Shown: positions 28,283 through 56,700, counted from the first letter of the whole stretch. The stretch is 63,999 nucleotides of DNA, filler included, from Albugo candida (GCA_040437565.1; 37 parts of 37 records of this genome joined end to end with filler, not necessarily neighbours in it), one strand, 5' to 3'. Program-made: numbers and translations. The notes: a model not told the origin generated them from the sequence alone.

Positions 28283-29229
28283 NNNNNNNNNNNNNNNNNN
28301 NNNNNNNNNNNNNNNNNNNNNNNNNNTTAATTAATTAANNNNNNNNNNNNNNNNNNNNNNNNNNNNNNNNNNNNNNNNNNNNCGACGATATATCTTCACT
28401 CTTTTCTTCGGCATGTCCCATCTGTGCTGTGCCCGTCCTTCCATCTTTATCCCCCTTGTTGACCCCTTTCGTGAGCCGTCCTACTTGCGGGGACCAGGTG
28501 TTGTCGTGCTCTCGTCACGCTCTCTTTACCAAGTTTTCGACTTTGGGCTCATAGACTATTGGCAAACTATAAGGTCTGCACGATGTTAATAACAGAGTAG
28601 GATGGAGAATAAAGGTGTTAATAGTTGGAAGGAGTTCTTAATTACGCACGCTGCGACCCTTCAAAGTAAATAAGTTTTTCTCCCGCGGCTCCTCGCAGTC
28701 GATCTAGTTCCTTCTGGTAAACCTTCACGGTCGTAAGAGTCACTTCCTCTTCATGGCGGCGATTACTGTGCACTCAATGCACATGATCTTCCAACAGGGT
28801 GTATGTGGCGTTTGTTGAGGTTATCTGAACCACATGAAATAAGGGTAGACCGTACAGATTTTGTTATAGGTTGCATCAGTTGAAGGTGTCTATATTACTA
28901 AATGGGTGTGACTATCGCCACAGACGTTTTCACCAGTGCCACAGACAAAACAGTTCTGACTGGCTAATATGTGTACAGTCAATATGATTGGGCGATATGG
29001 TAGCTATATTAGCCCTCAGCCTCCATAAATTGATGGGAATCGTAGCCTCTGATTAGTTTAAACAAATATAACAGAATAGATAAAATCAAATTACGGGAAT
29101 CGTTATCCAACCCCCACCCTTCATAAATTGATAGAAAGCGTGGCCTCTGATTGGTCTGAGTAGATGCAACGGAATAATACGATAAAAATCACATTTTAAC
29201 TCCTCTAGAAAGTACAATGATCAGCCTTG

Positions 29230-30031
29230 CACCACCACCCCAGGTTGCCTACGCTTCCATGTAACAGGCAAAAGCAGCAATTGATGATCATGCACTCCAA
29301 CAAGGCTATGTTGTGGTTATCAAACGTACAAAAAAGATGGGGAATAGGGCAAATGGAGACATGAAAGCTTTGATTCTTGACCGCTCCCAATCAAACCCCC
29401 AGTGATGGGTGTAGGGACTCGCCAACGTGTTTCTTCTAGCTGCAGCGCTAGGCGTTCGTTCAAGGCCAGACTATGAAAACAAAAGTCTGGCCAATGGCAA
29501 GTGCAAGTTGACAATGGAGAACACAATCATGCTCCCTTTGCTCACCAGTCTGCGCATCCAAAAGGGAGCCCTTCAACCAAGAAGAGCCGGCAATCAATCT
29601 TGATGATGGGTCATTTTGGTGTGACACCTGGCCGTACTATCACTTCACTACGCTAAAACAACAATGTTATTGCCACAGTTCAAGATATCTACATCTTCAT
29701 CGTTAAAATCGCAACAGGATGCTGTCAGGACGATCTTCACTGGTAGCTTTATTAGATAGTCTTGCTCCCGTTGACTACTTCTCTCAGTATGATTTTCTGC
29801 AGCGGGCTAACTTACCTGCTCATTATCTCACCTTCTGCAAAGGAGATTTGCAACAAGTGCAGTGCTGGTCGGATCTGGCTTATTGATGTTCCCTACAAGA
29901 CGAACAGATATGAACTTCCTCTTCTCCATATTATTGGCATCACAGCAACGAATACCACCTCCACATTTGCATACTGCTTTATGAAGAACGAGACTTCGGC
30001 CGACAACTTATGCGCAATGCGCCATGTCAAA
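29230..30031 (+). pseudogene. Degraded Mutator (MULE) transposase
   Basis: Fragments in several frames: HALQQGYVVVIKRT, WQVQVDNGEHNH, SAHP, YKTNRYELPLLHIIGITATNTT..AYCFMKNE. Confidence 0.8.
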
Positions 30032-30358
30032 NNNNNNNNNNNNNNNNNNNNNNNNNNNNNNNNNNNNNNNNNNNNTTAATTAATTAANNNNNNNNNNNNN
30101 NNNNNNNNNNNNNNNNNNNNNNNNNNNNNNNAGAAGAAATACTTTCATTACTGTTGCTGTAACCGACAAAGTCGTTATAATAAAATAGATAAAATAGCAT
30201 TAACCGTGCGAGACATCAGACATCACCCAAATAATTGCTATAGCCGTCGGTCAAACGATAAAATAACTATCATGATAAAGTCAAGGCTGATATGAGCGTA
30301 GGGTATGATGTTCTATATTTGTACATTAGTCTACACGCACCACTACACGCTGAAGTTG

Positions 30359-30477
30359 AAAAAAAAAAGTGTGGTCGCATCAGGTGATGAACTCTGTATA
30401 GGAGCTCACAGCACCTGACGATGATGAGCCTTATTGGGGCCCACAGCAGGTCGGGATAGAAATATATCAACCACGAT
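30359..30477 (-). ncRNA. Candidate structured small RNA (Pol III-like), family unknown
   Basis: TATAAATA at 30506-30499, closing stem GTGGTTG/CGACCAC, two similar hairpins with G-U pairs only on the minus strand, T10 run at 30368-30359. Confidence 0.5.
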
Positions 30478-31675
30478 ATACTTTATCTTAAAAAATTTTA
30501 TTTATAAAACCAGCCAAAAAACGGGGGTCGGTAAGTTGTGGGTTTTTTTATTTTACATACTAAAAATTCTTAATATAAACTCTTGTAGATATGCTATTCA
30601 GTTAATTTTAATTGTACAATTTAAGTGTATTAAAAAGTACAACACATGTATGATATAAATAAGTCATTTAAAGTACAAAAAGAAAAAAAATATAGGCGAG
30701 AGAACAGCTTCAAAATCCAGGCGGGAGAAGCTGAATGTGACGTAAACAGAATATTACAGATTTTTTTCATTTTTTTTTTCATAATACATCTTTTATTTCA
30801 GGCTCACATTTTTTTTGTTCAAGTCAATAAGCACAACAATCCAACAAAGACAAGACAAGATTGTGAAAGCGCTTTGCATTATTAACAGTCAGAAAAGTCA
30901 TTGAGTCAATGACTGTTATAGAAGTCAATGACTGTTATAGAAGTCAAGCAAAATGACTTTAAGAGAAAGCAAGATGATGGAATCAGTGTAGAATGACCAA
31001 GCATAATGTCTTTTTATTAAACGGTATTATTTAACATTTCAATTTAAAAGAGCCGCTCTACTTACTCTATTTTGTAATGGCAACAAAAGCAAAGTCGCAT
31101 TAGCTTGAATGTATACTCATGAATGACTACTAAATGAAAAGTAGTGTCCTTGTATTATGTGAGTAGCAGTTAGCAGTAGCCTAAATAATCAAAAACTAAT
31201 ATTATATTATATAGAATAGTGGGGGTTTTTTTTTATTGCAAATGTAAGCCAAATATTATGGAGCGATTGAAAACAATTTTATCTTTTATTTCTTTGCGAC
31301 AGTTTGGTAATAGTTGTGCTGCTAGAATTATTGCTGTACTGTCATTTAGCGGTATGTAAATGTATGAACAATTATTGAATGGTGTTAAAAATGGATATCG
31401 AATGTTTTCTATTTAGAAGTGAGAAGGACTTTTCTGTTGCTCATTATATAGCTGATAAATTTACGTTTTTTAAAAAACCGATAGTACTCGAGATACCACT
31501 TTTAGTATATAACACCAAATCAAAAAGAAGCGAAAAATTATAACGACGCGAAACCCCAAGCAAGCAAAAGAAGCAGTATTGGTAGCATGGTGATATAAAA
31601 AACAATACCACCATAGAAATTCAAATGCTGGAAAGAGTAAAGATTATGTAGAGCAGTTTTTTATTATATCCAGTA

Positions 31676-31778
31676 ATATGATGGATCTTATTCAAGCAAG
31701 AAGTTTTATCCCTATGTAGAGTAGTTTATGTTTAGTGGTATGATGGATCTTATTCAAGCAAGAAGTTTTATCCATATG
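31676..31778. repeat. Two-copy ~62-bp tandem duplication at contig end
   Basis: TATGATGGATCTTATTCAAGCAAGAAGTTTTATCC occurs twice. Confidence 0.85.
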
Positions 31779-32031
31779 NNNNNNNNNNNNNNNNNNNNNN
31801 NNNNNNNNNNNNNNNNNNNNNNTTAATTAATTAANNNNNNNNNNNNNNNNNNNNNNNNNNNNNNNNNNNNNNNNNNNNGCATTGCCACTCCCATGTCGCC
31901 AAATGTATGTGCAATTGATCATAGGCTAGGCAGTACATAGTATGGATATCATGGACACTTTGACTTTAATTGTAAATAAGGGGAAAAAAGAGACTAGACC
32001 TGTATTTTGATAAAGCGTTGGAGTTTACACC

Positions 32032-32156
32032 CAAACGCGTGGGATTTTATCAGGAAACTTGGGCAAATGCGTGGAAGTACTGGAAATTCCACAAAAACGC
32101 GTGGGATTTTATGAGGAAGCTTAGGGAAATGCGTGGAAGCACTTGAAATTTCGTAG
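32032..32156. repeat. Two-copy ~62-bp tandem repeat
   Basis: AAACGCGTGGGATTTTAT..GGAA..AAATGCGTGGAAG occurs twice. Confidence 0.75.
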
Positions 32157-32638
32157 GGAATTGCCTGGAAATCTGATGAAATCACGTAGAACCTTATTTT
32201 CTAAAAGCCTCAAAGAAAATGTAACCAAGGGAATCAGAAGTCGGAAGTCAGTAAAGCGGGGAATTTTTAGCAATTATCCGCCGAGGAAGGTTTATCTTCC
32301 GGCTCGAGCCATACTTTTATCTATGTGTGGGTCTCGTTTTTCCCATTTCAAAGAACCCCTCTTCAAGCAACCAAGAATGAGTAAAGCAGTACAAACGTCG
32401 TGTTTCCGTTTCCTTCCATGGATTTTTGACCTGGCTAAGGTGGTCGGACTTTGTCCCGACAATAAACTTATAAAGGTTTCTTGTAGTTGCTTTGTTAGAT
32501 TCGAAATCGTAATAGATATGGAACACCCTCGTAAGCACCACTCTCTCATCCTCCGGGTTAGCTAATCTGTAGGATCTCACTTGTCATTTTGATATACTCT
32601 CGACTGCACATTTCAAAAAAATCGGTTTACTGAGAAGA

Positions 32639-33507
32639 ATGAATCATATTGCTGTTCAATGCATGGGGATCATCGCATTCCTGATGATCAATTCGAGTCG
32701 GCAGATGAATAGGCAGGGTAAACAGTCTTCGAACAGCAAGATTGAGCAAAGGTCCCAAGCTATTGATCGCCTTAAGGCTGCATCGGCGAAGTTTACATAC
32801 ATTATAAAGAATGAATTATGGGATCAAGCCGGTAATGTAGCAGAGTCAACATCGAACCTCAACATAGTTGTTCCAATGCCTTTATCGAAATGGCGTGCGA
32901 GTTGTGACAAAGAGATGAAGTGGTTCGAAACTAAGGGGTCTCGACAAGGTGAAGGCAATACCTGCAACTTTTTTCGTTCTGATCGTCTAATTCTCGTGTG
33001 TGTGCATACATAGACGTTACTTCTGCTGACTTAAACAAACATGCAGACATATTCGAAAAATTGTTGAATTCGGATCAATTGACCGAGACCAGCACGTCGT
33101 CAAGCACGCCAACAAACTTGCGCAATAGGAACGCGGTCATTGAGGCAACTAGTGCAGCTTTAGGCGCGCTACAGCTTAATCACATGGTGATGCAGCAGAG
33201 ACTCGAAAAATTTGATGAAGGCTTCGCGAATGAATTCAAAGAGATAATAGCTGATCTAAAGCACAATATAGCTGAACTCGAGAGGGGGGATCTCATGCAA
33301 CACGGGAAAACGAAAGGTGCAGCACACGAATCGCTGTCAGCGATTTCCACTTCGACAAGAAATGAAAACATCAGCTCTAGCAGCAAAAAAAAAAAAGGTA
33401 CAAAATTGCGGGAAAAGCCACCCATCAAAATAAATGAAGATAAATTCCAGGATGAGCTCTCAACACCATCGACGCGATTGGATGGACCAACTGCGACTGC
33501 AAGCAAT
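32639..33507 (+). CDS. Hypothetical two-exon coiled-coil protein fragment
   Basis: Two overlapping ORFs joinable by a GT..AG intron at about 32949-33013; no recognised domain; start uncertain. Confidence 0.45.
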
Positions 33508-33990
33508 NNNNNNNNNNNNNNNNNNNNNNNNNNNNNNNNNNNNNNNNNNNNTTAATTAATTAANNNNNNNNNNNNNNNNNNNNNNNNNNNNNNNNNNNNN
33601 NNNNNNNTAACCATTCCTCCGTAACACTTACTCAAATTTGAAAAAATCTCGTTGGGTGTGTTCCTTCATAATAGGTGCTCTCAAGGACTTCGCTGAATTT
33701 TTTTTTTTACTAATTTTAGAAATCAATTTTTATCCAAAAATAGGCAAAAGTTGTAAAATGTAAACTATTTCCTTTTTTATTACAAAATAAATTCAGCAGA
33801 TAACCCTCTGCTGAATTTTCATTTCATTACTTAAAATAGTTAAAAAATTGGTTTGCAAAACTTACGAACTGTCACACTTTTTTTTTCTAATTTATTCTTC
33901 GAAAATCAGTTACTTGCAATTTTTTCTCTTGTTACTTTTTGTACAAAACTTTCTTTACTTTAACATTATATTTCATAAATACCTGTTTCA

Positions 33991-35234
33991 ATGCCTAATA
34001 ACAACTCAAACCAAACAGCTGCTGCTAGAGGAAGAGGAAGAGGATCTCGTGGAGCTAGAGGTGGTAGAGGAAACTTTAACTTCATCAACTACGTTCCCCC
34101 TGTTGATGAACGTGTTCCTTCACCAACTCCAGATGCACCTGAAGAGCCACCAACCACACCTGCACCTCCAACAGCTAACGAAACCGGTGTTCCACCCACT
34201 GAGCGAGAAGGTTCTCCTTTTGAACCTGAAGCCAATATCACTGAAAACTTGGAGGAAGAGCCTACTGAAGTAGTCTTGAACAATTCAAGTAACTGGACCT
34301 TCTTGCAAATCATGCTTGGAATCCATAACAGATTGTTGAGGGAGCCTGACAACTTGGTGAAGAATGCTATCTGGACCGCTTCTTTAAATCTTTTTAAGGA
34401 TGAAATGAGAAATGATAGCTCCGAGCCTGAAAACGTAATTGAAGCCTTTACTGTGCGCAAGATGCAAAACAAATGGAATTACATGAAAACCAAGTATAAC
34501 ACTTTGAGAAGCCGTCTTCAACAGACTGGTATTGGTGGTGAAGAAGGAAACAGATACTGGCAATATTACGATGAAGTAGGACAAATTTGTAGATTTGATG
34601 AAAGCATTCATCCACCTATTGTCGTTGAAAGCCAAAGCAGAAACGGCAACAATCCTATTGTAGTTGATAACACCGACAATATTGACATGTCTGAGGAAGA
34701 GTACGTTGAGTTGGGTGTTTCTCGTGCTAGAAGAAGAGGAACAAAAATCATTAATAGAGCAACTATTGATGAAAGAATTTTTTCACCTTCTGGAAGATAT
34801 GAGGGTGTTGAAGAACACAACAATCGGGATGACTTGCCTTCAACTGAAAGACCTGTTAACCAAGCTTCCCAAGGTGGTCCCACTGAAGAAAGCGAGGTTA
34901 CAGGTTCTGGACGTGAAACTAGAGCTAGGGTAACTGATGCCAACCGTTTGGAAAATCTTCGAACTCTTCTCGATGAACAACTGGGCAATGCCTATGACCG
35001 CTTTGAAAACCATCAAGAAAGCTTTATTGACTGGTTTGAGGAGAGAGATGATAGAATTGCTGATCGTTTAATTTCTTCTCTTGATGCTATTGCTGAAGAT
35101 TTCCGTAATAGTAATCAAGAATACATGAATTTTATTAGAAGAATTATGCGCCCTTCCTCTCGTTCCCGTCGCTCCCGTCGTTCCCGTTCTCGTTCTGACT
35201 CTCGTTTCCGCTCTCGTTCTTCTCGTTCTTCTCG
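33991..35234 (+). mobile_element. Myb/SANT-like protein, probable PIF/Harbinger ORF2
   Basis: KNAIW..FTVRKMQNKWNYMKTKY..TGIG..WQYYDEV; RGG-rich N-terminus, RS-rich end; upstream perfect 12-bp inverted repeat at 33789-33818. Confidence 0.7.
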
Positions 35235-37057: not shown

Positions 37058-38676
37058 TTTTGGGTTAAGTCTATAGTTTCAGCTTCTTTACTTTCAATTC
37101 TTTTTTCAAATGTGAATTCAGCGCACCATCTTGTTTCAAAATCCTTTACTTGATTTCTTTCAATTCCAATAGCAGTCTTACCCGTAACATGAAAGTGTAA
37201 ATTCCATACAATTGGAAGAACGGCATCCTTATCCAACTCTAAAGAACCCCAATGAACACCAGCAATGTGTTGAAGATGAATCACTCTAGAACAATAAGAT
37301 ACATGTGGTCTATCCACCGGCAAAAACGTCAAAGCACCATCCGGATCATCTGTAGGGTAAACACAAACAGGAACCCCATACGCATCAGCAAGAATCTGCG
37401 AATGGTATGGCGATTGAAACCAATGAGCAAATGGAGCCTTCAATAGATTTCGATGTTGTTTGTTCAACTCTTTATCTTCTTCTACTACGATGCCTTGATC
37501 ACACTTTTCAATTTTCTCCCTTGGTCTGTCAATGCCACAAGTAATGGCTTCCCGCATGCGTCCTACATCCATCCCAAAGAAATTCTTGTAAACTTCCTCT
37601 TGAAAGCGAAGCGCACCGAGCATTTTTTCCTCTATACGAGGATACCAAAACTGTTTCTTGTGTATACAGTGAGCCGCAGCCCTAAAACCACAAAAACCAT
37701 CATCTCTAGGATTGAACTTTTCTATGATATGTTCCGGATTAATACTCGAGTGAACTTCAAAATCATGATTTGTTGGAGGCAGAGGCATTACAACTGGAAC
37801 ATTTTCAACTGGTGGTCGAGGCAATATAAAGGGAAGAACAAGTCTGGATCGACGTTCCGGCTTAATCAAAACAGGATTGCACTTCTTTCTTTTTGTAGGA
37901 ATTACTAGTACGTTAGCGGTTAACAATTCTTCTTGACGTTCTTCTTGACGTTCTTCTTGATGTTCAACTTGTGTTTGTTTCTTGGAGACTATTGCAACAG
38001 TTGTAATAAGTATCACGGGTAACAGTTTAAATGTATATAAAAATGATAACTTACATTTTTCATCTAAAGCACTAGGAGAGACATAGTTTCTTTTAAACCC
38101 ACTCTTAAGGAAATCCTTAGGCAAAGAACTGAAACGGTCAATTGATCTTGGTCTTCCAGGGTAGCTAACGTGACTTGACAATGGTATGCTTATATTAGGA
38201 TGTTTTTCATCAGTATCAGCATCAATAGCTTCAAAAACATCATCCAAAACTTTCATCAATGAGTTGGATTTTTGATAATTTCCTTCTAACAAACGAAATT
38301 TTTCTTCCAAAGTTGCTACGTACGACATCCAAGGTTTCTTTTCTTCATAAATTTTATCTTCAATTATTGTCTGTCCTTTAGCACTTTCTTCAATCCACCA
38401 ACGTTGTGGAATATCATCCAACTCTAGACACCTATTTCCTATCTTATTCAAATCATGACAACATAAGAGGCCAAAGTTGCATTTAGCAGGACAATAACAA
38501 TTACCATCATTGCTGACATACTCTTTCCACAAATCTTTATTAAGCTCCAGACGAAGAATGTACACCGCTTTGAGAGATATTTTTCTATGGAGTTTCTTCA
38601 ACATTTCTTCTTTTTGAGCGCCCACATCCATAATTGATCTTTCTCTGATGACTATTCCCTTGTACACCTTCTCAAA
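37058..38676 (-). mobile_element. MULE transposase C-terminal part: SWIM finger plus OTU-like domain
   Basis: CYCPAKCNFGLLCCH, PQRWW, PGRP, DDGFCGFRAAA, LADAYGVPVCVY, GVHW; probable in-frame 66-nt intron at 37989-38054. Confidence 0.8.
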
Positions 38677-43810: not shown

Positions 43811-44013
43811 NNNNNNNNNNNNNNNNNNNNNNNNNNNNNNNNNNNNNNNNNNNNTTAATTAATTAANNNNNNNNNNNNNNNNNNNNNNNNNNNNNNNNNN
43901 NNNNNNNNNNTATCATTGCCATCCACTCACTCGTCAGCATCAACATGCTACAATGTCGATGTCTGCGCAATGGAGAAGGACGACAGGAGAAAGCCTTCGA
44001 CGCCGAGGAAAGG

Positions 44014-44034
44014 TGCCGCGACCCGGGATCGAAA

Positions 44035-44079
<45 letters not shown>

Positions 44080-44086
44080 CCGAGGC
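44014..44086 (-). tRNA. tRNA-Phe(GAA), possibly defective
   Basis: GCCTCGGTAGCTCAGTTGGGAGAGCG-TCAGA CT GAA GA TCTGA; one acceptor-stem mismatch and G53->T in the T-stem. Confidence 0.85.
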
Positions 44087-44405
44087 CACACACTGCACAA
44101 TCAACACACACCATACAACATATGCATTACCAACGCACATCACGAGTCACGCACGTATTCACGTACGGCTCACTCCATCCTGCCTGCAATCGTAGGTCAA
44201 TGGCACGCACCTGCTCGATTTGCGAAAATACAGAATCCGACAATGAAGGAGACAGACCGAGCGGCGACACGACTTATGGCACGGATACAGCGATGAGAAG
44301 GTTGAAACCGATGCGAAGTGCTTTGACGGACACGAAGATAAGCGACTGTCGTCACCGCTAAGGCGGTGTCGATGCGACCAGATTCGAATTTGTGTGTGTC
44401 AACAT

Positions 44406-44477
44406 TGCCCCCAGGCAGGATTGAACTACCGACCTTACGCCAACTAAGCGGGTGCTCTATTACGGAGCTATATGAGC
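44406..44477 (-). pseudogene. tRNA-Thr(AGT) pseudogene
   Basis: TAGCTC..TAGAGCA, loop TTAGT, GTTCAATCC; several stem mismatches. Confidence 0.65.
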
Positions 44478-44663
44478 TCCTCTCAACAACAACAACCAAC
44501 CATTTCTCACGCCCTGATTACACACGCTATTCACTCTCGCATCAATCACGCGCCACAAACAGATCCATCGGTCAATGGACCAAGCGATCGACTTAGTCTG
44601 CCACTTCGGGTATGTGAAAAAGAAACGGCGATGGTAGCAGAGGACTGAGGTGAAATGGAATAG

Positions 44664-44735
44664 TGCGCCGTCGGGAAATCGAGCCGCGACCTCATCCTGG
44701 AAAGGATTAAACCCTAATCTTGAAACCAAGGGTGT
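44664..44735 (-). pseudogene. Relic of tRNA-Gly(TCC)
   Basis: ATCCT-TTCC-AGGAT hairpin and 3' end TCGATTTCCCGACGGCGCA; heavily decayed. Confidence 0.4.
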
Positions 44736-45126
44736 TCCTCACGTTAGTCAGATGCCGACTCTTCTCACACTACCAAGTACATACACATCCATTGCGACCT
44801 TCTTCGCATTATGGAGCGCGTCGACGATAGCCACGAGCGACATCCCTCGCACCTTGCCGCGATAATCACGGCTGCCAAATGCACTCGTCCACCACTTCTT
44901 GTCCGCCTCCAGGCCATGCTTTTGGTGGCTGCTTCATACCAACTCCTGACAGTCTTGTAAACTTTACTGATGTTCGGTCGGCAAACGGGATGATTCGCCT
45001 TCATTTAGCATAGTGACAGAGCTTTGAAGCTGTTAGCGGTGGTCAACGTCAGCGAAGCGGCCGTACACCGGTGCGGTGCATTCCATCAACAGCAAGCAGG
45101 AGAAAGGGCGATCGTGCAGCCAAAGA

Positions 45127-45199
45127 TATCGGAGGAGGGGATCGAACCCTCGATCTTGAGCGTGTTAAGCTCACGTCCTAACCACTAGACGACACCGAC
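45127..45199 (-). tRNA. tRNA-Val(AAC)
   Basis: GTCGGTGTCGTCTAGTGGTTAGGACG-TGAGC TT AAC AC GCTCA..GAGGG TTCGATC CCCTC. Confidence 0.9.
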
Positions 45200-45235
45200 T
45201 CGTCAGCGCGCACACAACCGTGTCACAACTACCAC

Positions 45236-45400
45236 CATCTTTCTATCACGGTACTTGCTCGCTATCGATCTCGCACCAATACTTGGCTTTTGATGAAATT
45301 CCACCTACTTCGCGCTGCATTCTCAAACAGCGCGACTCTAACAAACGTATCGTACGCGCAAGCCACTTCAGTACAAACGGTAGTTTCACCCTCCATGCTG
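45236..45400 (-). pseudogene. Diverged 28S (LSU) rRNA D1-region fragment, oomycete-like
   Basis: Minus strand GAGTCGCGCTGTTTGAGAATGCAGCGCGAAG..GAGATCGATAGCGAGCAAGTACCGTGATAGAAAGATG resembles the conserved LSU segment GAGACCGATAGCGAACAAGTACCGTGAGGGAAAGATG. Confidence 0.85.
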
Positions 45401-45615
45401 TCGCGGTACGCGGTTGCTGGAGGCATACACGACATCATTGCCATCCACTCACTCGTCAGTATCAACATGCTACAATGTCGATGTCTGCGCAATGGAGACG
45501 GACGACAGGAGAAAGNNNNNNNNNNNNNNNNNNNNNNNNNNNNNNNNNNNNNNNNNNNNTTAATTAATTAANNNNNNNNNNNNNNNNNNNNNNNNNNNNN
45601 NNNNNNNNNNNNNNN

Positions 45616-47218
45616 ACCATTGATTATATGTACGCTTCACCTTTTATGTATCAGCATTTACATTCGTCTGCAATTGATTTTATTTCTTCTAAGTGGACAG
45701 ATCATGCTTTATTGACAGCTGACTTCATATTTCGACTAGATCACCAAGGTTCTGGATTGTATCGTGTTCACCCCAACCTTGCACAGAATTCCTATTTTCA
45801 AGATCAACTGTTTACCTCCCTTGATGAATATTTTGCTTCCTCTACTGGCCCTGATTTTATCAGCCTATCGCCACAAACTAAATGGGATCAAATTAAACAA
45901 ATAGTACGAGATAGTGCAAAATCTGTTGGACGTCGACGTAGTGCATGGATCCAACGATTTTTAAAAAGGCAACAACGCAAACGAAATAAAATTCTACGTG
46001 AATTCAAAATTCCCAATATTATTGACCCTCGTCTTTCTATAATAGAGCGTTTAATAGGTACTGTTCAACAAGACATTTCGAACACTCATTCAATTAGGGC
46101 TGGTAAGCATTGGAGAGAAAACGGTGAAACTTCTGCTGGATATCTAAAACGGACTATCACAACCAGAGCCGTCAAGCGGAATATGGCAACATTGATTCAT
46201 CCGGTTACTCGCACCTTATGCACCACGCCGTCTACTATGCAAGATGCTGCCACATCCTTCTACAAACACCTATATGAACCTGATCCCGTTGACCATCCTA
46301 GTATTGATCAACTATGTACAACTATCCCTGATACTGATACTATTCCTTCTTCTGCCCATGATTCCTTACAACGATCCTTCACAATCACTGATATCACAGA
46401 TGGTGCAAGTCGATCCCCCAAACATAGTAGTCCAGGAACTGATGGTTTGTCATATGAAATACTATCCCTACTCTTTCAACATCGTCAAACGGCTTCTTTA
46501 GCACTAACAATTTACAATGAAGCTCTATCATTAGGCATTTTTCCCGAAAGTTGGTTGTCTACCTGTATGTGCCTACTACCCAAAAAAGGGGACCTTAACG
46601 ACTTGAAGAACTGGCGTCCTATTTCTCTAATCAATGCTGACGCAAAAATTTTTACTCGTCTCATCAACCTTCGACTCATGCCATATATGAACAAATTGAT
46701 TTGTAAACAACAGCTTGGTTTTATGCCCGGTCGTTTCATTGGAGAACATGGCATTACGTTTCATACTACCAAATTACTTGCTACCTACAACAACTCTTCC
46801 ACCATTGCCTTACTTTTAGATCAAGAAAAAGCCTATGACCGTATTCATCCCCAATACCTACAACGCATTATGGAACAATTTAATATTCCTATGACTATTA
46901 TTCAAAGCATTACCTCCCTTTTTTTCAATACTGGTATTCAAATTAATATTAACGGACATATTACTACTAACCTTATTACTCAACAGCGTGGTCTTCGTCA
47001 AGGTGATCCCCTAAGCCCTCTATTATTTAATATAGCTTTTGATCCTTTTATCCGATCCATCCACAATAACCCTCACTTTCAAGGGTACAACTTCGCTTCT
47101 AAAGCTCCTCCTCCATCTTCTGATGCTATCTTTGATGACCTAGCCGAAAGTCTGGATCGATTGTTCCATCTACGTGATGACCCTCCTTTAACTTCTACTA
47201 GTAGCAATTCAGCTGTTC
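45616..47218 (+). mobile_element. L1/Tx1-like non-LTR retrotransposon ORF2 fragment (endonuclease end and RT)
   Basis: WTDH, WRENGE, SPGTDGL, NWRPISLINADAKIF, QLGFMPGR, LDQEKAYDRI, GLRQGDPLSPLLFN. Confidence 0.95.
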
Positions 47219-55989: not shown

Positions 55990-56700
55990 ATGCAATTGAT
56001 TCAACTTGCCATTCTTTCTCTTTTCGGTTTAGCTGCCGCCGCTCCTTCCTCCGTTGAAAAGCGTGGTGTAAACACTTCTGTCAAGATTTTCAATAATTGT
56101 CAATTCACTATTAAACTTGGTCAATTATCTAGCAATCAACCGCCTGTCCCCACTGTTACCCTTGCTGCTGGTGGTAGCAAATCTTACCAGTACACAGGTA
56201 CTTGGTCAGGTAGATTCTGGGCTAGAAAAAATTGTGATGGCGTTGATTGTCCACTTGCCGGTGCTGCTTCTCCTGCTTCATTAGCTGAATTTACCTTTAA
56301 TGGTGATGCTGGAAAAGATTTTTATGATCTTTCTTTTGTAGATGGTTATAATTTGCCTGTTTCTATTACTCCTGTAAACCCTAACAATGTTGGTTCTGGA
56401 GACAAGTATTGGTGTGGTACACCTACTTGTTCTACTACGCCTGTCTGTCCTCCAGAGTTACAAATCCAGGTCAATGGTGGAGATGATGCTTGTTTATCTG
56501 CTTGCTCTAAATTCGGAAACCCTGAATATTGTTGTTCCGGTGCTTTCAATACTCCTGATAAATGTCCCATCAACAAGTATGCTGCAGTTGTTAAGAAAGC
56601 TTGCCCTGATGCCTATAGTTATGCTTATGACGATAGATCTAGTACTTTTACATGCATTGCTCCTGCTTATACCATTACCTGGTGTCCTAACAAGAATTAA
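55990..56700 (+). CDS. Secreted thaumatin-like protein (PR-5 family)
   Basis: Signal peptide, EKR processing site, WSGRFWAR, SLAEFTF, DFYDLSFVDGYNLP, ACPDAYSYAYDD, YTITWCP; TATAAAA about 70 nt upstream. Confidence 0.97.
   Translation: MQLIQLAILSLFGLAAAAPSSVEKRGVNTSVKIFNNCQFTIKLGQLSSNQPPVPTVTLAAGGSKSYQYTGTWSGRFWARKNCDGVDCPLAGAASPASLAEFTFNGDAGKDFYDLSFVDGYNLPVSITPVNPNNVGSGDKYWCGTPTCSTTPVCPPELQIQVNGGDDACLSACSKFGNPEYCCSGAFNTPDKCPINKYAAVVKKACPDAYSYAYDDRSSTFTCIAPAYTITWCPNKN

Follow-up and report, generated by a model that had tools for sequence, protein, structure and literature searches.

Predicted transcript and its duplicated hairpin

On the minus strand of the window, by which we mean the whole 64-kb stretch of DNA that was analysed, a G+C-rich segment is located between a TATA-type box, TATAAATA (30499–30506), and a run of ten T (T10, 30359–30368). 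Based on its fold, the body of a predicted transcript was delimited to 106 nt, from G30474 to C30369 (30369–30474, minus strand), to which some U of the terminator would be added. The distance from the TATA-type box and the position as first base of the terminal stem both suggest G30474 as start site, and this G is preceded by C. The body has a G+C content of 51%, compared to 37% and 30% in the flanks, and no run of four T occurs within its 106 nt. T10, the predicted Pol III terminator, is separated from the terminal stem by two nucleotides (AC). The original prediction had proposed an undescribed Pol III RNA of about 110 nt at this site, and all sequence features that it listed were found where it had placed them.

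According to RNAfold, the ends of the RNA are joined by a terminal stem of 7 bp, one of them U-G, which is formed by the 5' arm GUGGUUG (30468–30474, nt 1–7) and the 3' arm CGACCAC (30371–30377, nt 98–104). This stem, with T10 behind it, had been proposed by eye and was reproduced upon refolding. It is followed by a pyrimidine-rich single strand (30449–30467, nt 8–26, reaching to nt 30 in the minimum free energy (MFE) structure), which is unpaired in the MFE as well as in the centroid structure and might serve in base pairing or in protein binding. Hairpin 1 (30422–30448, nt 27–53) consists of UG, a CU bulge and a stem of 7 bp that carries the loop CCAAUAA. In hairpin 2 (30378–30420, nt 55–97), a CU bulge separates a lower stem of 9 bp from an upper one of 8 bp, which ends in the loop CUAUACA; this hairpin adjoins the terminal stem without a linker. 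The earlier description of two hairpins of the same design with 7-nt loops, at 30448–30422 and 30418–30380, was confirmed, RNAfold extending the second one to 30420–30378. Where a CTG/T internal loop had been described, RNAfold shows a CU bulge of 2 nt and an adjacent G-U pair; both descriptions are equivalent.

Fold statistics were obtained with RNAfold and 200 dinucleotide shuffles. The MFE of the minus strand was −40.4 kcal/mol, compared to −25.15 ± 3.1 kcal/mol for the shuffled sequences (z = −4.92), none of which folded as well, and the centroid was identical to the MFE structure. The plus strand reached −31.4 kcal/mol (z = −1.26), and 25 of the 200 shuffles folded as well. The gap in z between the strands arises because six G-U pairs of the minus-strand MFE structure turn into A-C mismatches on the plus strand. 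The three G-U pairs named in the original prediction are among the pairs found, although the MFE structure holds six in total. This strand difference points to selection on the minus-strand RNA rather than on a DNA palindrome.

Hairpins 1 and 2 can be aligned with 23 invariant columns. The surroundings of the bulge are identical in both (UGCUGUG on the 5' side, UCAUCA on the 3' side), whereas the distal stems differ at four positions, which fall within three of the seven shared pairs. All four differences are transitions, and pairing is kept throughout: a G-U pair is replaced by A-U, a G-C pair by G-U, and a C-G pair by U-A, with both sides changed in the latter. All seven pairs survive random substitution in 1.2% of cases. 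As a transitions-only model retains them in 22%, the argument from retained pairing is a weak one and lends mild support. The combination of a fixed bulge and an outer stem that has drifted and yet remained paired would fit a protein-binding site that is present twice, in line with the two binding sites for one protein proposed in the original prediction.

Rank, copy number and surroundings of the locus

The locus was compared with 397 runs of at least five T, taken from both strands of the window and preceded by N-free sequence, by folding the 106 nt before each run. The segment before T10 folded best of all 397 (−40.4 kcal/mol), the next best value being −35.2 in one scan and −34.1 (twice) in another. 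The word TATA[AT]A was present at the matching distance in 14 of the 397 upstream segments and CCCA[ACT]A between −85 and −50 in five; only the candidate locus has both in place. As for single words in the window, TATAAATA occurs six times per strand and TATAAA 52 and 45 times on the two strands, and there are 41 runs of at least eight T (20 on the plus strand and 21 on the minus strand). The arrangement of signals and fold exceeds chance expectation; it is real and statistically unusual.

These counts bear on the reading that the locus is silent, namely a chance or decayed G+C-rich palindromic relic that has a TATA-like A+T stretch on one side and a T-run on the other by coincidence and gives no stable RNA. 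The flanks, with 30–37% G+C, are of a kind in which TATA-like words and T-runs are common, and degenerate pieces of transposons abound around the locus. However, the combination stands out as the one extreme case among the 397 places compared, and neither the strand bias of the six G-U pairs nor the gap in z is expected for a DNA palindrome. Furthermore, AAACCCACA, which is contained in the upstream box described below, occurs only once in the window with both strands counted (CCCACA, 18 times). We regard a silent relic as unlikely, while still giving it some weight.

No second copy was detected in the window, either by blastn or with a covariance model built from the single sequence (133.4 bits for the locus itself, 13.0 bits for the next match), and no inverted or direct repeats bracket the locus within 28383–33507. 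The stretch is present in two of four sequencing runs, in DNA contigs throughout, and its sequences are near-identical. In one of these runs (X1), a 1577-nt contig passes 30132–31706 unbranched. The other (X2) shows no substituted letter over 30318–30571 and one 1-nt insertion, an extra letter between the stem and T10 in a single contig with a depth of 2.3. The candidate RNA locus is single-copy within the window and the assembly contig. A MITE, SINE or other repeat was rejected as an identity, based on the one copy in the window, the lack of bracketing repeats and the unbranched contig of X1. The original prediction had named a MITE terminus as evidence against a new RNA; none was seen, with no repeat copy in the window and no repeats around the locus.

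The DNA of the window is eukaryotic. The frames of mobile elements found in it encode a reverse transcriptase, an integrase, a Copia-type gag, a LINE endonuclease and a Helitron-like N-terminal domain. On the plus strand, a MULE domain fragment (29756–30031; PF10551, E = 2.7e-08) covers profile positions 1–50 of 99 and runs into an N stretch; judged by this match, and with no recognisable continuation, it is a truncated or decayed element near the RNA locus. Since this fragment lies past the 3' end of the RNA, at a distance of about 340 bp, and retrotransposon, LINE and Helitron-like frames fill the window, the locus might have been captured or might be a structured remnant of a decayed transposon, a MULE or another one, and in either case have no function of its own. 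The single copy, the lack of bracketing repeats over the interval given above and the unbranched contig speak against this, as does the absence from the window of any primer-binding-site-like complement to the 3' end of the RNA, and we consider such an origin very unlikely. The same absence of a complement anywhere in the window led us to reject a retrotransposon primer as the identity of the RNA.

Several other features of the surroundings were recorded. Short tandem duplications in intergenic DNA are located near the locus at 30904–30973, 31664–31778, and 32019–32142, with units of 19 nt (two to three copies), 53 nt (two copies), and 62 nt (two copies). Three long frames (33979–35234, 37058–38676, and 2–1036, with 418, 539, and 345 residues) gave no Pfam match at E 0.001. 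By eye, one of them has an arginine/serine-rich tail and one has motifs that look like those of an OTU-like cysteine protease; the three are possibly uncharacterised transposon proteins. Paired blocks of 44 N, split by TTAATTAATTAA, recur every ~1.75 kb. They are artificial filler and lead to false palindromes and repeats in repeat finders.

Searches for known families and relatives

U6, U6atac, 5S, Y RNA, vault RNA, 7SK, SRP, RNase P/MRP and the self-cleaving ribozymes are all represented in Rfam. Its 4227 families were searched at gathering level on the window, and at E up to 10 on 401 nt and on 121 nt of the locus. At gathering level, two matches were obtained in the window, both of them tRNAs away from the locus. 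Each of the two relaxed searches gave nine weak matches, none of which came near its gathering score. Of those that cover the body on the RNA strand, mir-378 was the best, with 15.4 bits (gathering score 80). The remaining ones were almost all archaeal C/D models on the plus strand, led by sR42 with 13.8 bits and followed by others with 7.6–11.4 bits (gathering scores 38–65). The original prediction had seen no likeness to 5S, tRNA, U6, U6atac or Y RNA and had proposed this covariance search; its outcome agrees, as none of the 4227 families gave a credible match.

A highly divergent member or a pseudogene of a known Pol III family (U6/U6atac-, Y RNA- or vault RNA-like, or tRNA-derived) might be missed by covariance models. 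In favor of this reading, the RNA resembles Y RNAs and U6-type genes in its size, its terminal stem, its oligo-U end and its upstream promoter, and the loop CCAAUAA of hairpin 1 is one base off the usual eukaryotic tRNA-Ile(AAU) anticodon loop. In addition, one unpaired base and then a short trailer come after the 7-bp stem, an arrangement that tRNA genes also have. For Mucorales, the Lichtheimia genome paper reports a U6atac that is highly divergent in its second half, and a U4atac that was not found (PMC4133162). On the other side, no match on the RNA strand exceeded 15.4 bits when the 121 nt were compared with Rfam at E up to 10, and ARAGORN found no tRNA gene in 30250–30650 at its default or at the 80% threshold; at 70%, it gave nothing but a call with an intron of 263 nt, which is implausible.

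The hallmarks of the individual families are likewise absent. tRNAs form a cloverleaf with D, anticodon and T arms, and tRNA-Sec has a UCA anticodon. Both were rejected, as the loops CCAAUAA and CUAUACA do not contain UCA and neither ARAGORN at its default or 80% threshold nor the Rfam tRNA model gave a match. In U6 and U6atac, a single-stranded ACAGAGA-type box is followed by an AGC triad and an internal stem-loop. At the locus these motifs do not occur in order: ACAGAG is found once (nt 78–83), across the loop and the stem of hairpin 2, and no AGC follows, so that U6 and U6atac were also rejected. Animal Y RNAs are Pol III transcripts of ~100 nt with upstream promoters, a stem formed by their ends, a pyrimidine-rich internal loop and an oligo-U tail, and they act as protein scaffolds; their terminal stem carries a conserved bulged helix that binds Ro60. 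The candidate, in contrast, has an uninterrupted 7-bp terminal stem without a bulged helix of the Ro type and no match to Y RNA in Rfam, and Y RNAs do not have the duplicated hairpin module. A divergent known RNA thus appears quite improbable to us.

Box C/D snoRNAs have a C box (RUGAUGA) near the 5' end, a D box (CUGA) near the 3' end and a short terminal stem. The minus strand contains no UGAUGA. On the plus strand, GTGATGA and GATGATGA are C-box-like and one CTGA is D-box-like, and the weak Rfam matches, almost all to archaeal C/D sRNA models, fall on this strand; a plus-strand box C/D snoRNA was weighed on these grounds. Those matches are explained by the complement of the conserved hairpin module, which reads GTGATGA and GATGATGA, and all of them stay far below their gathering scores. 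Moreover, the sole CTGA is located between the two C-like boxes and none follows the second, and the plus strand, with its six A-C mismatches, folds no better than shuffles. As no D box follows the second C-like word and the words lie in perfect Watson-Crick helices, the C/D reading was rejected, and we attach almost no probability to it.

Four further identities were tried and dropped. A hammerhead ribozyme was rejected, as CUGAUG is present but GAAA and an Rfam match are not. An H/ACA RNA was rejected because there is no hinge box and the stem closes the entire molecule. A small telomerase RNA was set aside on features that we presume to be diagnostic: the single strand holds no repeat-and-a-half template, there is no pseudoknot, and the RNA is too short. 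A decoy for U12-type 5' splice sites, suggested by UAUCC in the single strand, was dropped as pure speculation.

Relatives were searched by scanning metagenomes, prokaryote genomes and viral contigs for the two-hairpin motif. The metagenomes gave five loci (three with the same sequence); each of them is either unrelated DNA or a tandem repeat, and none exceeds 7.1 bits by the model. One chance locus with 5.8 bits was obtained from the prokaryote genomes and none from the viral contigs. A 70-codon frame over the RNA was translated and compared with a protein collection, in which relatives could appear as spurious ORFs, and no candidate was found. A 20-nt string of the RNA is absent from the searchable literature. 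The main texts of the same literature describe no non-universal small Pol III RNA for Mucoromycota.

Promoter-like signals and the proposed gene

The TATA-type box TATAAATA occupies positions −32 to −25, with 24 nt between it and G30474; the original prediction had likewise placed it about 30 nt before the terminal stem. Gene-external Pol III genes are recognized by a TATA box ~25–30 bp before the start and by a T-run at the end with none inside, and the candidate has TATAAATA at −32/−25, T10 at its end and no TTTT in the body. A further mark of this class is an upstream or proximal element around −50 to −70 which the snRNA genes of a genome have in common. Further upstream on the minus strand, AAACCCACAAC (30535–30545, −71 to −61) is a candidate USE/PSE-like box by motif likeness. 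An A-run precedes it, and 28 nt separate it from the TATA-type box; in plants, a box-to-TATA spacing rule applies to Pol II and Pol III genes. A G+C-rich box, CTTACCGACCCCCGT (30521–30535, −61 to −47), lies between the USE-like box and the TATA-type box. It had been put forward as the proximal element, and its position was correct, but the adjoining AAACCCACAAC (30545–30535) is the stronger candidate for this role and may act as a promoter element.

The likeness of AAACCCACAAC to the USE of plants and ferns and to the DUSE of Dictyostelium is suggestive, although it is a post hoc match at one locus. In a preprint on fern U6, the Arabidopsis USE is given as RTCCCACATCG and that of the fern Ceratopteris as AAACCCACATGTG, followed by TATA and a G start (bioRxiv 10.1101/2025.01.12.632625). 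Nine letters are common to AAACCCACAAC and the fern USE, and AAACCCACA occurs in both. The DUSE, [AT]CCCA[AT]AA, is located ~63 bp before many ncRNA genes (PMC3188802) and, in a second source, ~60 nt before Class I RNA genes, where it is required for expression; it serves Pol II as well as Pol III genes (PMC7919456). The upstream box fits the published consensus at seven of eight positions, at −69/−62, the same distance as in Dictyostelium. The comparison with U6 promoters that the original prediction had suggested revealed a likeness of the adjoining AAACCCACAAC to the published plant and fern USE. A fungal precedent was not found in the literature searched.

No USE-type promoter in Mucoromycota was found in the literature searched, and two papers speak against one. 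In the genome paper on Lichtheimia (Mucorales), the Pol III genes are reported to have neither a TATA nor a PSE or Oct motif in their upstream regions (PMC4133162). Fungal U6 promoters are variable, and yeasts use A and B blocks, according to a U6 review (PMC5855946). At Rfam gathering level, the window contains no other snRNA genes for promoter comparison.

Two tRNA genes, tRNA-Phe(GAA) (44012–44086) and tRNA-Val(AAC) (45127–45199) (−), are located 1 kb apart in the window. Neither is trailed by a long T-run: within ~50 nt downstream there is no run of at least four T, only CTTTC and CTTTG. T10 is therefore not a general feature of the Pol III genes in the window. The block around them (44001–46000) has 47% G+C, much more than the rest of the window, and may be an inserted or foreign segment or a tRNA-carrying element. 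At 31220–31235 on the minus strand, a second A-run is followed by CCCCCAC and, 5 nt later, by TATATAATATAATA. This arrangement is superficially box-plus-TATA-like with a quite different spacing, and what follows showed neither a stable structure nor a terminating T-run.

In their logic, the Class I RNAs of Dictyostelium and the USE/TATA Pol III genes of plants appear closest to the candidate, which by this comparison is a member of neither group. Class I RNAs are lineage-restricted, have ends that form a short stem, a CCCA-core element ~60 nt upstream and often a T-run behind, and are taken as Pol III products (PMC7919456, PMC3188802). The candidate resembles this description in its end-joining stem, its CCCA-core upstream box at ~60 nt and its T-run. 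Class I RNAs, however, measure 50–60 nt, their stem has 5 bp, and they share a conserved CCTTACAGCCAA-type motif (PMC3188802). The candidate, in contrast, has ~106 nt, about twice that length, two hairpins and a TATA box, and the internal CCTTACAGCCAA-type motif of that description is absent, so that it does not belong to this class. Furthermore, Class I RNAs form a multigene family, whereas the candidate locus is single, and its DNA probably comes from a fungus instead of an amoeba.

Plant U6-type Pol III genes have a CCCACA-core element and a TATA box 25–30 bp before a G start, and do not need internal boxes (bioRxiv 10.1101/2025.01.12.632625). The candidate shares the CCCACA-core box, the TATA box and the G start with the snRNA-type genes described there, but its transcribed part is unrelated to U6 as judged by Rfam. 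Yeast SNR6, according to the review cited above, has a TATA box ~30 bp upstream and a T-run terminator, and yeast U6 requires an A block inside the gene as well as a B block behind it, bound by TFIIIC (PMC5855946). Set against that account, the candidate is similar in the TATA box ~30 bp upstream and in the T-run terminator; by eye, it differs in that it shows no A block and no more than weak words resembling a B block (GAGTTCATCACC).

Taken together, our preferred reading is that of a lineage-specific small Pol III RNA encoded at a single locus: its promoter would be gene-external, its family one outside Rfam, and its duplicated bulge modules would bind one protein twice; we assign to it a probability of roughly 0.55. 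In this model, a factor would bind the AAACCCACAAC box at −71/−61 and TBP/TFIIIB the box TATAAATA at −32/−25. Transcription would run from G30474 to T10 and yield an RNA of ~106–110 nt with a 3' oligo-U tail of the kind bound by La-type proteins. The RNA would be Y-shaped, with the 7-bp stem joining the ends and stacking on hairpin 2, and with a pyrimidine-rich strand of 19–23 nt left free. The two hairpins would have arisen by internal duplication, after which the bulge module (UG-CU-GUG/UCAU-CA) stayed identical and the outer stems and loops drifted, the stems remaining paired. The conserved module would most likely be a protein-binding site and, being present twice, would make the RNA a small RNP scaffold. 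The sequence signals, the fold, the strand bias and the single copy are observations, whereas the polymerase, the start site, the factors, the protein binding and any cellular role in this model are inferred from them.

A thaumatin-family protein encoded at 55990–56697 has a mostly Mucoromycota cluster as its nearest Atlas cluster (score 0.98); the placement of the DNA in Mucoromycota rests on the nearest cluster of this one protein and is likely, not proven. A myosin fragment, compared in the same way, did not narrow the placement. We also consider a wider reading, which is more speculative and which we hold to be rather doubtful: the locus could be the first representative of a Pol III RNA family, so far undescribed, in early-diverging (Mucoromycota) fungi, with a CCCACA-type element plus TATA. 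The RNA would then serve as a small RNP scaffold that offers one protein-binding bulge module in two copies and whose free pyrimidine-rich strand could pair with a target. If this were true, a snRNA-type gene-external promoter as in plants and amoebae would survive in a fungal lineage, having been lost in yeasts.

To our knowledge, few small Pol III RNAs exist beyond the universal set (tRNA, 5S, U6, SRP, RNase P/MRP). The discovery of each of them, such as Y, vault, 7SK and Class I RNAs, opened a piece of biology. Should the locus be silent, it would be a lesson in how convincing chance arrangements can look in A+T-rich DNA. If it is expressed and conserved, it would represent a new RNP in a group that includes crop symbionts and the agents of mucormycosis, and its compact native Pol III promoter and terminator could be used for guide RNAs in fungi that are short of such tools. 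It would also give direct evidence on the design of Pol III promoters in early fungi, a point left open by the Lichtheimia paper (PMC4133162).
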